NCBI GenBank assembly: GCA_900299145.1
Contig: OMIN01000031.1
Span: 249 to 64,248, forward strand
From: Betaproteobacteria bacterium
Lineage (GTDB): Bacteria > Pseudomonadota > Gammaproteobacteria > Burkholderiales > SG8-41
Direction of reading: 5' to 3'
DNA length: 64,000 nt
The notes beneath the pieces were generated by a model that saw only the letters and a list, made by a program, of their open reading frames with translations, was not told the DNA's origin and made no database searches. Within the stretch, counting starts at the first letter, position 1, and each line of letters starts with the position of its first letter. A program made the position numbers and the translations under genes. This document shows positions 1 through 7,153 of the stretch, piece after piece.

Positions 1-803
1 CCGACTGCTTCGCCGTCATCCGTCAGCCGGTCAAACTCGGCGATGACTTTGTGCGCCCAGGCAATTTCATCCGCAGTCGGTGAAAGGCCCTTCACCAGCG
101 GATCGATGAAATTCGGATGCAGCGCGCCGGCATGATGCACGCCCGCAGCATGTAACGCAGCCGCCTGCTGTGCCGCCTGATCGGCCTGATCGACGCGGCC
201 GGATGGGTTGGGCACAAACACGCTACCGGTGGGTTCGATATCCAGCGCCATAGCCGCCAACGACACATTTGCCTGCGGGAACGCATACTGGTCGAAGCTC
301 GCGAACATTTCGATGCCGAGGTTGACCGCCATGTCGTAGCCGCCGCCGCCGCCAAGCGAGCGCAGCTTGCGTGGCGTCGCGGTGAGAAATTCGTAGATGT
401 TGACCGCGCCCAGCGCGGATTCGATCATGGGGTAAAGTTCAATCGTGCCTGGCACGATGCCGCGCTCTTTCTCAAGCTTGAGTATGATTTCATGAACGCG
501 GCGGTACTCCGCCGCCGATTCGGTTTTCGGGAGCATGATGCGGTCAACGCCGGGCCAAACCGCGTAGGGCAAGTCCGCATCGACAAACGGCTTGTTGATA
601 CGCACATAGATCGACGCGCCGCCCTTGCTGGCCTTGGCAATCGATTCGCGGATCAGCGTTCGGCAGCGCTGCTTTTCGGCGGGCGCGATGGAATCCTCGA
701 TGTCGAGAATGTAGGCATCACCACCGCGCGTCCAGGCCTTATCGATGAAACGCGGGTTGGTGGGCGTGACGAACATCACGCAGCGAGCGACTCGATTGTT
801 CAT
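1..803 (-). CDS. CitE/HpcH-like CoA ester lyase, paralog 1 (3' end runs off window)
   Basis: Hand translation from ATG 803 (absent from ORF track): MNNRVARCVMFVTPTNPRFIDKAWTRGGDAYILDIEDSIAP...VRIN...MLPKTES...PMIES...GGGYDM; CitE motifs. Confidence 0.85.
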   Translation of the reverse strand, partial: MNNRVARCVMFVTPTNPRFIDKAWTRGGDAYILDIEDSIAPAEKQRCRTLIRESIAKASKGGASIYVRINKPFVDADLPYAVWPGVDRIMLPKTESAAEYRRVHEIILKLEKERGIVPGTIELYPMIESALGAVNIYEFLTATPRKLRSLGGGGGYDMAVNLGIEMFASFDQYAFPQANVSLAAMALDIEPTGSVFVPNPSGRVDQADQAAQQAAALHAAGVHHAGALHPNFIDPLVKGLSPTADEIAWAHKVIAEFDRLTDDGEAV

Positions 804-834
804 GGGTTATTCCACTCAAAAATTTTCTTCGATA

Positions 835-1821
835 CTACCGATGCGCCGCGGCCTTGGCCTCGTCCCGCGCCTTGACCCGGTTCGCCCATTTCAGATACAG
901 CTTCGCGCGCAAATCCACCGGGACATCGATCATATTGCCATCAATGGGTACCGACGCCATGCCGCGCTTCAGCCCCTCAGCGAAAACCTCGATCACTTTT
1001 ACGTAATAGGCAGCTTCTTCCGGCGACGGGCAAAAGCCCGCGTTGCAGTGTTTGATCCACGAAGCGTGTGCGCACACCGCGCCTTTGAAGCCGGTGTCGC
1101 GCGCGATGCGTACGGCTTTCTTCACCGTGTCCTCATCCACATTAGCGCCGGTCAGACTCAGCGGATAACTCATGCCCAGTGCCTGCCCGCCCACCGATAC
1201 CGCCACCGTAATCAGCTGCGACTTGATGTATTCCAGCGGATCGAACGCGAGTGTCGCCGTTGTCTGCATACCAAGGCTTCTGCAGAGCACCAGCTCGTTG
1301 ATGTAGAACGCGCCAAAGCGTTTGCTCGCCCGCGCAATATCCAAAGCGTGCCACACACCGCCGGCTGTATCGACTTCCACATCGATTTCCAGCGAGCCGC
1401 GCGCCATGCCACGGCTTACCTCCAGCGTATCTAGACAGTGTGCTGCTACCGTGATATCCGTAGCAGCAGTGACACCGGTCAACACGATACCAGCGATACC
1501 ACCAAACACCACGGCATCCAGTTCAGCTGCCGCGCTGCCGCTCGCCACGCGCACGAACACTTCCGCGCCGCCGCGGCCCGCCGCGTATATCGCCGCTGGC
1601 ATGCGCGTTTTCAGATCGGTCTGCCAGTCGCGATCAGCTTCCTTCACAAAATCCAGGATGATCGCGTCAGCAAAAGAAGCGTATGCCTTGTCGCCGAGTT
1701 GCGCATCGTCAATAGACAGCGCCAACACCGAACGGCGAATGGTTTTGGGCATGGGCTTGTCGGCCGCCAATACCTGATCCTGAGTTGCGCTTTTATCTTG
1801 CATGGTCATGGTGTTCATCAC
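835..1821 (-). CDS. CitE/HpcH-like lyase, paralog 2 (divergent active site)
   Basis: RRSVL...ILDF...VRV...C-terminal PSPEE...GNMIDVP lid; GTG start overlaps upstream TGA. Confidence 0.8.
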   Translation of the reverse strand: MMNTMTMQDKSATQDQVLAADKPMPKTIRRSVLALSIDDAQLGDKAYASFADAIILDFVKEADRDWQTDLKTRMPAAIYAAGRGGAEVFVRVASGSAAAELDAVVFGGIAGIVLTGVTAATDITVAAHCLDTLEVSRGMARGSLEIDVEVDTAGGVWHALDIARASKRFGAFYINELVLCRSLGMQTTATLAFDPLEYIKSQLITVAVSVGGQALGMSYPLSLTGANVDEDTVKKAVRIARDTGFKGAVCAHASWIKHCNAGFCPSPEEAAYYVKVIEVFAEGLKRGMASVPIDGNMIDVPVDLRAKLYLKWANRVKARDEAKAAAHR

Positions 1822-2546
1822 TGGGCAAACCCTTCATTCACCGCCGCCACCTGCTCCGGCGCAGCGCACACGCAGCCGGTAAAACCCATCAGCCGCGCTT
1901 CCCGTGCCGCCTTCGCCGTGCTTTCTTTGGAAGCCACGCCCCCGCGCGAGTCGGGCCGCCACAATGCGCCGAGCGGCTGCTTCCCGAGCATGCGCGCCAC
2001 CAACAGCGCACGCGTCATCAGGAAGCGATACAACCGAAACTCGTTCTGCGGCACCGGCCCCAGCCGCATCGTCAAATCAATGCGCCCGACACCCAGCGCC
2101 GTTACGCGCGGGCTTGCCTTCGCGATGGCATCAGCGTTCCAGAAGCCGCGCGCCGATTCGAGCATCAGCACAAGTTCCGTCGCGCCCGGCTCGACGCCGC
2201 GCTCGCGCTCGATGGCCGTGATGAGTTCGCCCACTTCGGCGACTTCGTCGGTCGAATCGGCGCCTGGAAATACAATCCCCCGGATGCCGCGAGTCACCGC
2301 GGCGCGCACATCGGCCCAGCGCGTATCGCGGTCAATGCGCACAAAGACCTCAACCTGACTGTCGGCCAGTTTCTGGATGACCGCTGTCAAGCCTTCGCGC
2401 GCGGCCGCTTTTGCCTTCGGCGGCACGGTGTATTCAAGATCGAGCACCACCACGTCAGGCTTGATATCCGCGCATCGTGCGAGCGCGGCCGCGTCATGCG
2501 CGGACACGATCATCCACGAGCGCCGGTTGTTTGTGTTATCTGTCAT
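1818..2546 (-). CDS. CitE/HpcH-like lyase, paralog 3 (short C-terminus)
   Basis: RRSW...VLDLEY...VRID...LMLES...GRIDL; GGAGG RBS upstream of ATG 2546. Confidence 0.8.
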   Translation of the reverse strand: MTDNTNNRRSWMIVSAHDAAALARCADIKPDVVVLDLEYTVPPKAKAAAREGLTAVIQKLADSQVEVFVRIDRDTRWADVRAAVTRGIRGIVFPGADSTDEVAEVGELITAIERERGVEPGATELVLMLESARGFWNADAIAKASPRVTALGVGRIDLTMRLGPVPQNEFRLYRFLMTRALLVARMLGKQPLGALWRPDSRGGVASKESTAKAAREARLMGFTGCVCAAPEQVAAVNEGFAQ

Positions 2547-2582: not shown

Positions 2583-3575
2583 TCATTCCAGCCGGATTTT
2601 CGCATCCCTGATGAGTTTTGCATAACGGGTGAGATCGGTCTTGATCAACGCGGCAAACTGCTCCGGCGATCCGATCATGGTGTCGGCACCCATTTTTTGC
2701 AGGGTATCCCGCACGTCCGGCGTGCGCAAGATGCGCGCGTATTCCGCTGACAGCTTGTCGATAATCGCGCGCGGCGTTCTTGCCGGCGCCAGCACGCCCT
2801 GCCACGAATTGACGGAAAAACCCGGCAGGCCCGCCTCGGTAAACGTCGGCACGTCCGGCAGCGAAATCAGCCGATTCTCGCCAGAAATCGCGATGGCTCG
2901 GATGCGCCCGGCCTTGACGAAAGGCGTCAGCGGCAAGGCATTGTTGGTAAACACCTGTACCTGCCCACCGACGAGATCGGTCACCGCCGGCCCTGCGCCC
3001 TTGTGCGGAATATGCTGCATCTTGATGCCGGCAAGTATGCTGAAGAGCTCAAGCGCCAGATGATTGGCAGTGCCGCTGCCCGACGACGCATAGTTGAGCT
3101 GCCCCGGTCTGGCTTTGGCGAGCGCGATCAACTCCTGCAGGTTATTCGCCGGCAATTGCGGATTGACCACCAGCAGCGTTTCGGTGCCAACAAGCGTCGC
3201 CACCGGCGCGAAATCGCGCACCGCGTCATACGGCGTTTTCAGCAGACTCGGATTGATGGCGTGCGTGCTGGTGACGTGCAGCAGCGTATAGCCGTCGGGC
3301 GCGGCCTTGACCATTGCCTCACTCCCAATGATGGTGTTGCCGCCGCCGCGATTGTCCACCACCACCTGCTGGCCCCAACTGTCGGTGAGCTTTTGCCCGA
3401 TCAAGCGCGCGATGATGGTGGTGCTGCCGCCAGGCGGGAACGTCACGATCATGCGGATGGGTTTGCTCGGGTAACCTGCGGCGGGGCTTTGCGCGTGAGC
3501 AGCTGTTCCGCCGTGGCAGGCGAACACAGCCAAGACGTATAAAAAGCTAATCAAAAACAAATACTTACGATCCAT
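2583..3575 (-). CDS. Bug/TctC tripartite tricarboxylate transporter substrate-binding protein
   Basis: YPSKPIRMIVTFPPGG, VDNRGGG, PDGYTL, PDVPT motifs; signal peptide; GGAGG RBS before ATG 3575. Confidence 0.93.
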   Translation of the reverse strand: MDRKYLFLISFLYVLAVFACHGGTAAHAQSPAAGYPSKPIRMIVTFPPGGSTTIIARLIGQKLTDSWGQQVVVDNRGGGNTIIGSEAMVKAAPDGYTLLHVTSTHAINPSLLKTPYDAVRDFAPVATLVGTETLLVVNPQLPANNLQELIALAKARPGQLNYASSGSGTANHLALELFSILAGIKMQHIPHKGAGPAVTDLVGGQVQVFTNNALPLTPFVKAGRIRAIAISGENRLISLPDVPTFTEAGLPGFSVNSWQGVLAPARTPRAIIDKLSAEYARILRTPDVRDTLQKMGADTMIGSPEQFAALIKTDLTRYAKLIRDAKIRLE

Positions 3576-3738
3576 ACACACCTCCGTTAACTTGAGGATG
3601 CGGGGAGTAAATACGCGCTCGCGAGGTAACGCGAACTTATCTGATTGGTGCTTCCGATTGCTGCCGTGAAACAACCTGAGACTTCAGCTGCACGCTGGCG
3701 AGAGGGCGCTGGTGTTTGTGAACGGCGCAATTGCAGCG

Positions 3739-3837: not shown

Positions 3838-4995
3838 TTACGAATGCCCACCTGCCGCACGCAGTGCCGGCGCTGCTTCGCCCTGCGGTGCAGTGGGCGC
3901 TTCCGGACGCATCCAGCTGGTGATGGGCTTAGCCCACGGCGAATGCGCGCCTTCGTACGCTTTCGGGCCCTTGATGAAGTGCTTGGCCTGATCCAGTGTT
4001 TCGATGTGCGGCATGTCCATTGCGTAGAGCTTGTTGAAACGCGGACGCGGCCCCGCCTTCGACACGAAACCATAGAGCTGGTGCCCCACCACTTCCTCGG
4101 CCAGCCACACCGCTTCGATCAGTTTTTCCAGATTGACGCCGGTGTCGATGCCCATTTCTTCGAGCATGTGCATCAGATCTTCAGTTGCGATCATCGAAGC
4201 GCCGCGGCCATTGCCGCAATACGGGCAGCCCGCCATGCCGCCGATGGCCGATTGCAGACGCAGTGTGTCGTCGCCGTCCATCTGTTTCATCGCGGCGTAA
4301 ACCGACGCCAGCGCCACGCCACGCGTGTTGTGCAGATGCAGGTTGAAATCCCTGATATGCGGCCAGCGCTGCTTGATGGCGACAATGCACGCCTCCACCT
4401 GATGCGGCATGTTCCAGCCCATCGCGTCAGACATGCCGATTTTCGTCACCTTGATGCCGGCCTCGGCCCACAGACTGTGCATGCGGTCGAACATGTGCAT
4501 CAGTTGTTCCACTGTGACGTCGCCGCTCCAGTTCGAGCCGAAGGCGTTGCTGATTGACATGCAGCCCTCGGTCGCGCCGTTGGCCACCGCCTGCTCGATG
4601 CTCTTCGGCCAGGTGGCCACCTGCTGCGCCACCGAGCGGTTGGTGTTGCGCTGCGCGAACACGTCGCACATGTCCACGCGCGTAGCGTACTCCAGCGCTT
4701 TTTTGGTAAGCGGCGGGCTGTAGGCTCGTGCGCGCTCGCGCCCCTTGTCATTCAATGCGGTGTAGACATAGCGCACGCCGGGGCGCGGCGTGAAGCGCGT
4801 CACCAGTTCCTCCATCACCGCCATTTGCGGCGTGTACTTCGGGCTGACAAATGAACCAACCGCGATTTCCTTCAGGCCGGTGTCCGACAGTGCATCAAGC
4901 AGACGGATTTTGTCATCGACGGGAATTTTCGCGCTCTCGATCTGCAAACCTTCGCGCATGCCTTCTTCGGTGTGAACAATTTTGGGATAACCCAT
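3838..4995 (-). CDS. HMG-CoA lyase-like DRE-TIM metallolyase
   Basis: EEGMREGLQ, GSFVSPK, HLHNTRG, GGMAGCPYC, ATEDL motifs. Confidence 0.85.
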   Translation of the reverse strand: MGYPKIVHTEEGMREGLQIESAKIPVDDKIRLLDALSDTGLKEIAVGSFVSPKYTPQMAVMEELVTRFTPRPGVRYVYTALNDKGRERARAYSPPLTKKALEYATRVDMCDVFAQRNTNRSVAQQVATWPKSIEQAVANGATEGCMSISNAFGSNWSGDVTVEQLMHMFDRMHSLWAEAGIKVTKIGMSDAMGWNMPHQVEACIVAIKQRWPHIRDFNLHLHNTRGVALASVYAAMKQMDGDDTLRLQSAIGGMAGCPYCGNGRGASMIATEDLMHMLEEMGIDTGVNLEKLIEAVWLAEEVVGHQLYGFVSKAGPRPRFNKLYAMDMPHIETLDQAKHFIKGPKAYEGAHSPWAKPITSWMRPEAPTAPQGEAAPALRAAGGHS

Positions 4996-5236: not shown

Positions 5237-7153
5237 TTATTTGTCCTTCTTCTCGGACAGCGATTCCTTGCGGATTTTCACCTCTCCCTTTTGCTTCAGG
5301 CTCGCCAGAAACGCGGCGTTTTGCTCCTGCAACAGGGCCTGCCCCATGGCCGCGGCGAGGCTCTTTTCTTTTTCAGCGTCGATCTTTTCCGGCTCGACTG
5401 TGCGCGTCACGCGCACCAGCGTGTAGCCCTGCGGCGTTTCCACGCCGGAATAAGCAGGCAATTTCGACACATCGGTGCGCAGAATCTGCTTGCGCAAGTC
5501 ATCATCCAAGTCTTTGATTTGGCTTGAAAAGTTCACCAACTGTGATTTACTCCAGTTGACTTCGGCATCCTTGCCATCCTTACCTTGGCGCAGCTTTTCC
5601 AGCGTCGCCCGCCCTTCCTGCGCGGCCAATTGCGTGGCGCGCTGACGCGTGAGCTTGTTCACGATCTCAACCTGCACCTCCTCAAACGGGCGCACCACGG
5701 CAGGCTTGTGTTCGAGCAGGCGCGCAGAAACCAGCGTGCCGGGTGACACTTCAACCGCTTCGGTATTGCGCTTGTTCTTCAACACCTCGTCCGAAAATAT
5801 CGCCTGCAGCAATTTGGGATTGGTCAGTCGTGGGTCACCCGCACCACCCCCACGCGTAAAGAATCCGCTTTGCAACGGTGCGGATTTGGCCAAATCCTCC
5901 GCAGATTTCAACGTGTCGGCTTGCTCAAACACCATGTTGTTGAATTGCTCGGCCAGCGCGGCGAATTCCTTGCCCGCCGCCGCACGCCGCAGGTCGGTTT
6001 CGATTTTGCCGCGCTCGGCCTCGAACGACGGCGGCTTGGTGGCGGAAATGCCGGTAAGCTTGATAATGTGCAGGCCAAATTCGGATTCCACGATGTCGGA
6101 AATTTCACCGACCTTCATGCCGAACGCCGCGTCGGAAAACGGCTTCACCATGTCCGCGCGCTTGAAGTTGCCCAAGTCGCCGCCATTCACCGCCGAGCCC
6201 GGATCCTGTGAATTCGCTTTGGCGATGTCGGCAAACGCCGCCGGCTTGGCTTTCACCTGTTTCAACAAATCTTCGGCTTTGGCGCGGGCCTTTTTCTTGT
6301 CTTCAGCCGAGGCCTTGGCGTCCACAGAAATCAGGATGTGGCTAGCCTGGCGCTGCTCCTGCACCTGCACGCGCTTGGCTGAATCATCAAACACGCGCTT
6401 GACGTCTTCCGGATCGATTTTCTGACTGGGCAGCAGCGCGTCGAGCGACAGCACCACATATTCGACGCGCACCTGCTCCGGCGTACGGAATTCATCCTGC
6501 CGGCTGTCGTAATATTTTTTCGCGGCGTCGCCCTCGATACTCACCTTGCTTTCAAAGCTCGCGGGCGTCAGTGTGAACGTGCTGGCCTCGCGCTGCGTTT
6601 CCATCAGTTTCGACAACTGCTGCACCACGGTACGCGGCAGGAAGTGCGCTTCGCCATAAGCATCGTTCACCTGGCTTAGCATCAGATCACGACGCATTTC
6701 ATATTCGAACTGGGCCGCGCTCTTGCCGCGGGTTTTCAGGAAATTTTCATACATTTCTATGGAAAACTTGCCGTTCTCCTGAAACGCCGGCGCCTGCCCC
6801 AGTATGATCTGCAACTGCGCATCCGTCGTCACCATGCGCGAACGCTCCGCCTGTTGCAGCAGCAGTTGACGACTCGCCAGTGCCTCGGCGACGCTGAATC
6901 GCATTTCCGGGTTGTCGAGCATTGCCGGGTCCATCTTGCCGCCCATCATTTGCTGCAGGCGGTCCTGCTGTTCGCGCAGCGCGACGTTGAATTCCTGCTG
7001 GCTGATTTTTTCGCCGTTTACCGTGGCAATGGTGGTGGCGGATTCGTCGCCGCGCAAATAGGAATCCACGCCGAAGAAAGCAAACGGCGGCACGATGAGC
7101 AGCGCCAGCACCAGTTGCAGCGCACGCTTGTGCCGGTAAACAAAATCAAACAT
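5237..7153 (-). CDS. ppiD: PpiD periplasmic chaperone/peptidyl-prolyl isomerase
   Basis: N-terminal TM, SurA-N domain, rotamase motif ASHIL...[14 protein letters not shown]...SEFGLHII; 638 aa. Confidence 0.92.

Follow-up and report, generated by a model that had tools for sequence, protein, structure and literature searches.

Three tandem CitE-like paralogs with complementary losses are probable subunits of one hetero-oligomeric acyl-CoA lyase

The active sites of malyl-coenzyme A (CoA) lyases and related enzymes of the CitE-like superfamily are shared between neighbouring subunits. In the numbering of the R. sphaeroides enzyme, the triosephosphate isomerase (TIM) barrel provides Asp42, Glu44, Asp45, Arg76, and the Mg2+ ligands Glu141 and Asp168, and the beta-hairpin of the C-terminal lid, which closes the site of the neighbouring subunit, carries Asp299 (PMC3832036; PMC6689899). 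Because the lid with Asp299 completes the site of the neighbour, the formation of a trimer is a prerequisite for activity, and the superfamily as a whole conserves Arg76, Glu141, Asp168, Glu44, and Asp45 (PMC3832036; PMC6689899). Here we describe three tandem CitE-like genes, P1, P2, and P3, located at the beginning of a 64,000-nucleotide stretch of DNA from an uncultured Burkholderiales bacterium (positions 249–64,248 of contig OMIN01000031.1, C31 of genome G000; hereafter the window), which is preceded by only 248 bases of the contig. Comparison of the three proteins with their relatives suggests that they are probably subunits of one hetero-oligomeric CitE-like acyl-CoA lyase, organized into a 1:1:1 ring in which the lid of P2 would close the barrel of P1 and the lid of P1 would close the barrel of P3.

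The malyl-CoA, beta-methylmalyl-CoA, and citramalyl-CoA lyases (R. sphaeroides, PDB: 4L9Y and 4L9Z; M. extorquens, PDB: 5UGR; C. aurantiacus, PDB: 4L80) share the Pfam family and the TIM barrel with P1, P2, and P3, and are the best matches for all three. As in these enzymes, P1 contains all the catalytic residues, and both P1 and P2 possess a lid composed of a helix, a hairpin, and a helix with the aspartate. Unlike malyl-CoA lyases, which are homo-trimers or homo-hexamers encoded by one gene, the locus encodes three paralogs that each differ in the part they lack. The (S)-citramalyl-CoA and beta-hydroxyacyl-CoA lyases, represented by the PA0883 type of P. aeruginosa (PDB: 8KHL, 9NZB), RipC of Y. 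pestis (PDB: 3QLL), the CitE protein Rv2498c of M. tuberculosis (PDB: 6AQ4), and human CLYBL (PDB: 5VXO), belong to the same superfamily and have the same site formed by Mg2+, arginine, and the lid aspartate. The trio resembles this group in the presence of family III CoA-transferase neighbours, and the known members of the group function in carboxylate breakdown. However, these enzymes are all homotrimers, and none has a partner subunit that lacks the lid or the metal. CitE of the CitDEF complex is the closest NCBIfam model and the name that databases give to homologs of the three proteins, but the scores are far under its cut-off, and CitDEF is heteromeric through unrelated subunits and not through CitE paralogs. 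No citD or citF gene is annotated near the window trio or in any of the annotated related loci, a result that covers these neighbourhoods and not the genome as a whole. Every characterised member of the CitE-like superfamily that we found is a homo-oligomer, and a literature search, whose limited coverage makes it weak evidence of absence, returned no heteromeric CitE-like, malyl-CoA, or citramalyl-CoA lyase.

The three genes and the elements within them are positioned in the window as follows:

3–803, minus strand: P1, canonical CitE-like subunit; the gene is cut by the window edge and the first 267 of its 312 amino acids are inside.
835–1821, minus strand: P2, CitE-like subunit of 328 amino acids whose barrel is degenerate and whose lid is conserved.
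913–942, minus strand: beta-hairpin of the P2 lid, residues 294–303, DGNMIDVPVD, with the presumed catalytic Asp299; assigned from invariance in orthologs and from the model.
1818–2546, minus strand: P3, lidless CitE-like subunit of 242 amino acids, counted from the ATG at 2546.
1818–1821, minus strand: GTGA overlap of the P3 stop and the P2 start, within ...gcc cag tga tga aca... (caGTGAtg) as read on the minus strand.

The complete P1 gene encodes 312 amino acids at positions 113–1051 of the contig (L001), which ends 112 bases past the stop codon. The last 45 residues of P1, including the lid hairpin DGKVID, are encoded just outside the window (L001:113–247). The open reading frame of P3 spans 1818–2564, and an in-frame ATG at 2564, further upstream, would give a protein of 248 residues. 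The true start is likely the ATG at 2546, since it is preceded by a GGAGGA box and the resulting length of 242 residues matches that of the closest database relative. The GTGA overlap, noted in the original prediction, was read in the sequence. An ATG follows directly after the GTG start of P2, and the overlap could therefore be one nucleotide instead of four. The four-nucleotide overlap is repeated in one checked ortholog (G008, L032), and another has a gap of 66 nucleotides (G009, L033).

All three proteins score above the gathering threshold (25 bits) of the Pfam family PF03328 (HpcH_HpaI), P3 with 97 bits (E-value 1e-27), P2 with 42 bits (8e-11), and P1 with 86 bits (3e-24), and the identity between any two of them is only 24–29%, in agreement with the description of the trio as divergent CitE-fold genes in a row. 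The best NCBIfam model by E-value is TIGR01588 (citE), with 63–98 bits against a cut-off of 443; the scores are 32–75 bits against 375 for RipC_Ccl (NF038242) and 23–36 bits against 500 for the haloarchaeal malyl-CoA lyase (NF041626). The best PDB matches of P1, which was compared by sequence only, are the malyl-CoA lyases 5ugr and 4l9y (E-value 4e-15). P2 and P3 were represented by single-chain AlphaFold (AF2) models built on family alignments, and both models resemble malyl-CoA lyases best. The P3 model (predicted local distance difference test score, pLDDT, of 90) is a bare TIM barrel with a final helix formed by residues 231–240, and has a TMq of 0.82–0.86 to 4l9y and 5ugr. The P2 model (pLDDT 92) contains a barrel followed by a helix, a beta-hairpin (residues 291–298), and another helix, and has a TMq of 0.73 to 4l9y and 4l9z.

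The residues at the active-site positions were read in the window proteins and in 221 aligned relatives. The barrel states are given in the order Asp42, Glu44, Asp45, Arg76, Glu141, Asp168:

P1 type: barrel D-E-D-R-E-D, canonical in 70 of 70 sequences; lid aspartate present in 70 of 70.
P2, window protein: barrel D-V-K-R-D-V; lid DGNMIDVPVD.
P3, window protein: barrel D-E-Y-R-E-D; no lid, C-terminal end ...NEGFAQ.

P1 contains the motifs LDIEDS, VRIN, MIES, and GYDM, has the Mg2+ ligands Glu128 and Asp157, the Glu-Asp pair, and the arginine, and its lid DGKVID carries Asp276, outside the window. P2, with the motifs LDFVKE, EVDT, and INELV, has lost four of the six catalytic or metal-binding residues of the barrel: the positions of Glu44, Asp45, Glu141, and Asp168 are occupied by Val, Lys, Asp, and Val, respectively, and the arginine is kept. 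These four positions drift freely among P2 orthologs, and the most conserved stretch of the protein is the lid hairpin, G[KR]MIDVPVD, in which Met297, the lid aspartate Asp299, Val300, Pro301, Val302, and Asp303 are invariant in 46 P2-type sequences from both of the subclades described below. P3 contains the motifs LDLEY, VRID, LES, and GRIDL, with the Mg2+ ligands Glu130 and Asp157, a Glu-Tyr pair, and the arginine; its chain stops where the final helix of the barrel ends, without a lid. The pattern D-E-Y-R-E-D without a lid is found in nearly all of the 49 P3 sequences of type a, the subclade to which the window trio belongs. In P3 of type b, the other subclade, the positions of Glu44 and Asp45 are Val and Glu, and that of Arg76 is Gln or Met. 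The metal ligands are kept in at least 90% of 51 P3 sequences. All the motifs that the original prediction had quoted for the three proteins are present, and the P2 lid and the lidless end of P3 agree with the AlphaFold models.

The published structures with the lid positioned over the neighbouring subunit, together with the shared residues, imply that the lidless P3 or the P2 deprived of metal ligands should be inactive alone. Nevertheless, the ratios of non-synonymous to synonymous substitution rates (dN/dS) relative to the nearest orthologs are 0.09–0.14 for P3, 0.07–0.17 for P2, and 0.04–0.09 for P1; pseudogene-like ratios in P2 or P3, which would speak against their co-assembly, were thus not found. 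The lidless form of P3, with a length of approximately 240 residues (about 243), comprises more than 100 clusters at 90% identity, which share 70–88% identity. P2 and P3 are both under selection, and each has retained the part that is missing from the other; this would be explained by a hetero-oligomer based on the domain-swapped trimer.

The trio is well supported as an ancient conserved genetic unit. When 185,579 species genomes were scanned by pattern, with the P3-family alignment as a query, 80 loci were identified. Of these, 65 contain all three types, and in the remaining 15 the contig ends within about 2 kb downstream of P3. A lone P3-type gene, which would have counted against the original prediction, was not found at any of the 80 loci where the flank sufficed. 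The hosts are mostly uncultured Burkholderiales, with further representatives among Alphaproteobacteria, Dehalococcoidia and other Chloroflexota, Methylomirabilota, and Actinobacteria (Blastococcus). Several environmental metagenome-assembled genomes (MAGs) bear implausible species names in their titles, such as 'Bordetella parapertussis', 'Asaia bogorensis', and 'Streptomycetaceae' (L050, L053, L054, L057, L063, L064, L092, and others); these mislabelled contigs are clearly close kin of the uncultured Burkholderiales genus studied here, and their taxon labels are untrustworthy.

In a tree of all copies, the P1, P2, and P3 types are each monophyletic with a support of 0.99–1.0, and each type clade splits into the same subclades, a and b. 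The parallel split indicates that the three types predate the duplication and that the trio was duplicated as a unit. In a set of 41 related genomes, the same 18–19 contain the type-a genes, with one discrepancy explained by a contig end, and the same 12–13 contain the type-b genes. The genes of each set are co-located wherever the contigs reach, and the sole gaps, two in number, are at contig ends or in a genome that is 84% complete. Many genomes of the genus contain both sets, and G000 has type a only. The gene order is (TctC)-P3-P2-P1 in type a and P3b-P1b-TctC-amidohydrolase-P2b in type b, where TctC is a solute-binding protein gene. The type-b trio, in which the amidohydrolase belongs to amidohydrolase_2, occurs at loci L036 (G004:C537), L037, L043–L047, and L109–L119; it is often preceded by a gene for a true HpcH-type aldolase of 263 residues, and in one locus each by a flavin mononucleotide (FMN)-dependent dehydrogenase gene and an amidase gene.

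P3 and P1 are also joined naturally. Four clusters of in-frame fusions, with at most about 50% identity to each other, combine a P3-type N-terminal half with a P1-type C-terminal half:

P0121, 638 amino acids, found on five contigs.
P0124, 612 amino acids, with a lidless P3 half.
P0144, 650 amino acids, from Chloroflexota, type-a-like.
P0146, 645 amino acids.

By the Rosetta-stone argument, the fusions point to a joint particle of P3 and P1. No fusion of P2 was seen, although P2 fusions were not specifically looked for. Open frames of 421–577 residues had suggested additional fusions within the genus, but inspection of the open reading frames identified separate genes, the long frames being upstream extensions in GC-rich DNA.

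The losses follow a pattern in the trees. P3 still has a lid in Chloroflexota, Methylomirabilota, and a few Betaproteobacteria. The P3 tree indicates two to four losses of the lid, with one or more in each subclade, and in addition the lid aspartate is replaced by threonine in one clade and by glycine in one further lineage, so that the lid or its aspartate is gone in up to six lineages. The P2 barrel is fully canonical in the four type-b lineages that retain the lid aspartate of P3, and altered to a varying degree in nearly all others. Thus, the lid of P3 and the barrel of P2 have decayed repeatedly and for the most part in parallel, whereas the P1 barrel, the P1 lid, the P2 lid, and the metal ligands of P3 are never lost. 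The type-a trio of Burkholderiales, with the P3 lid wholly deleted and the P2 barrel fully degenerate, is the most derived form.

Co-assembly of P1, P2, and P3, as the original prediction proposed, is well supported by inference from the conserved trio, the parallel clades, the joint presence and absence, the complementary losses, the purifying selection, and the P3-P1 fusions. The conservation pattern does not favour the further proposal of a P2 lid lent to P3, and points to the P2 lid closing P1 and the P1 lid closing P3. The decay of the P3 lid and the P2 barrel, while the other parts persist, would fit only one order of a 1:1:1 ring; the most parsimonious arrangement is that of P3 lid on P2 barrel, P2 lid on P1 barrel, and P1 lid on P3 barrel. 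The opposite ring, which includes the originally predicted pairing of the P2 lid with P3, is disfavoured because it would leave the canonical P1 barrel lidless and aim the conserved P1 lid at a dead barrel. The putative complex would retain the domain-swapped trimer of the family, in which a lid with the catalytic aspartate closes the Mg2+-binding barrel of the neighbour. P1 would be the complete subunit, P2 a pseudo-enzyme subunit whose lid is the selected part, and P3 a subunit consisting of the barrel alone, with its metal site intact. The P2 lid would complete the canonical P1 barrel, the P1 lid would complete the altered P3 barrel, and the P2 barrel with the P3 lid would represent a sacrificed third site.

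Several observations weigh against this arrangement. P1 has everything needed to function as a homotrimer, and other stoichiometries may apply. Two loci (L094 and L096) keep the lid aspartate of P3 with a dead P2 barrel, and in one (L111) the P2 barrel is canonical and P3 has no lid. Furthermore, the lineages that show decay of the lid and barrel are few and related, and the decay events are therefore not fully independent. P2 proteins of type a keep an E-x-D-x-E segment (residues 144–150) on the strand that normally ends in a Mg ligand, as well as Glu176, located two residues before the lost aspartate ligand. Therefore, the P2 barrel may be re-purposed and not dead, and the type-a barrel could bind something else. 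The pathway context in G000 is also thin, because its ortholog of a double-domain CoA-transferase encoded downstream of the trio in relatives (79% identity) is unlinked to the trio, in the middle of another contig (C60:21071–23608).

It is unlikely, given the gene arrangements and fusions, that the locus encodes two enzymes, with P1 alone forming a homotrimeric or homohexameric CitE-like lyase and P2 and P3 forming a heteromer in which the P2 lid completes the P3 barrel, the pairing of the original prediction. In support of this reading, none of the seven key positions of P1 deviates from the canonical state, P1 possesses a lid of its own, the translation of P2 is coupled to that of P3 in the window, and the good lid of P2 complements the good metal site of P3. 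However, all four fusion clusters join the P3 type to the P1 type and not to the P2 type; in type-b and Chloroflexota loci P3 adjoins P1, with P2 placed last or two genes away; and a three-membered ring of P2 and P3 would always contain mismatched sites. Moreover, apart from gaps at contig ends, a P1-type gene was not found without the other two in the 41 genomes.

Less probable still are three independent homo-oligomers of one pathway, among which P3 would be an HpaI-like metal aldolase, independent of CoA and functional without a lid, and P2 a non-catalytic binding or regulatory protein. In favour of this reading, true HpcH/HpaI aldolases of PF03328 have about 255–265 residues and are not known to carry the CitE-type lid, and P3 of the window keeps the arginine and both metal ligands. 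Nevertheless, the sequence and fold of P3 match those of CitE-like CoA lyases: all its PDB sequence matches and all the listed structure matches are such lyases or a related malate synthase, and by either measure HpaI-type aldolases are not its closest relatives. P3 of type b has Gln or Met in place of the arginine that is invariant in the superfamily. The P3 relatives from Chloroflexota still have lids, and P3 therefore descends from a lidded CoA-ester enzyme. The fusions and the invariant P2 lid would also be left unexplained. The reading of P2 and P3 as decaying pseudogene duplicates of P1, which could appeal to their lack of residues called invariant in the literature, has practically no probability and is refuted by the intact frames, the dN/dS of 0.07–0.17, the conservation of the altered states across phyla, the more than 100 clusters of P3, and the invariance of the P2 lid.

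The reaction that a heteromer of the three proteins would catalyse is predicted from the family to be a Mg2+-dependent cleavage of a carbon–carbon bond, or hydrolysis of a thioester, in a beta-hydroxyacyl-CoA that bears a carboxylate. It is likely that a hydroxy-di- or tricarboxylyl-CoA would be cleaved to an acyl-CoA and an oxo-acid. The TctC protein would aid the uptake of the free acid, and a family III CoA-transferase would activate it. The import of a di- or tricarboxylate is suggested by the TctC gene, and in many loci genes for family III CoA-transferases are found next to the trio. In Alcaligenaceae MAGs, a gene for a CoA-transferase of 400–423 residues is directly upstream of the trio, and in several members of the genus a double-domain form of approximately 860 residues is encoded downstream of the type-a trio (L038:2789–5377, L041:1358–3955). 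The other neighbours of the trio vary, and include genes for HMGL-like proteins (related to 3-hydroxy-3-methylglutaryl (HMG)-CoA lyase), amidohydrolase_2, HpcH aldolase, FMN dehydrogenase, and gluconolactonase-like proteins.

If the three proteins do form one complex, they would be a clear natural case of the conversion of a homomer to an obligate heteromer by complementary loss, with the roles of barrel and lid divided among the subunits. Intermediate stages are still extant: Chloroflexota have a lidded P3 and a canonical P2, and some P3-P1 proteins are fused. Hundreds of genes annotated as 'citrate lyase subunit beta' would then probably encode non-autonomous subunits, and the trio is now counted as three enzymes in pathway reconstructions of abundant uncultured freshwater and marine bacteria. 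A more tentative possibility, suggested by the distribution of the losses, is that the complementary decay produced a pseudo-symmetric heterotrimer in which two chemically different sites are left, P1 barrel with P2 lid and P3 barrel with P1 lid, and the third was given up. Such an enzyme could conceivably run two CoA-ester reactions, for example carbon–carbon cleavage and thioester hydrolysis, or cleave two substrates, as part of an uncharted pathway of carboxylate metabolism in freshwater Burkholderiales and marine Chloroflexota.

The trio forms the end of a run of five minus-strand genes that extends from position 4995 down to the start of the window, in the order HMGL-like, TctC, P3, P2, P1. 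The first two genes are:

2583–3674, minus strand: TctC/Bug-family periplasmic solute-binding protein (PF03401, E-value 8e-71), directly upstream of P3.
3838–4995, minus strand: HMG-CoA-lyase-like protein of 385 amino acids (PF00682, E-value 3e-20), first gene of the apparent operon.

An ortholog of the TctC gene, with 74–88% identity, is directly upstream of P3 in most loci of the genus. The HMGL-like protein scores 184 bits with the model NF004283, which has a cut-off of 246. It is approximately 80 residues longer than is typical, and is 95% identical to its counterpart in the relative G013. The HMGL-like gene adjoins the trio in a few loci only (L048/L051, L052, and L111) and is missing from L041 and other loci; it is a variable neighbour outside the conserved core. 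Scans for promoters and terminators gave counts no better than those from shuffled sequences. Directly upstream of the operon, at 5237–7153 of the window, is a gene for a PpiD-like periplasmic chaperone of 638 residues, the ortholog of which is adjacent in at least two relatives (L041 and L048), with or without the HMGL-like gene before TctC.

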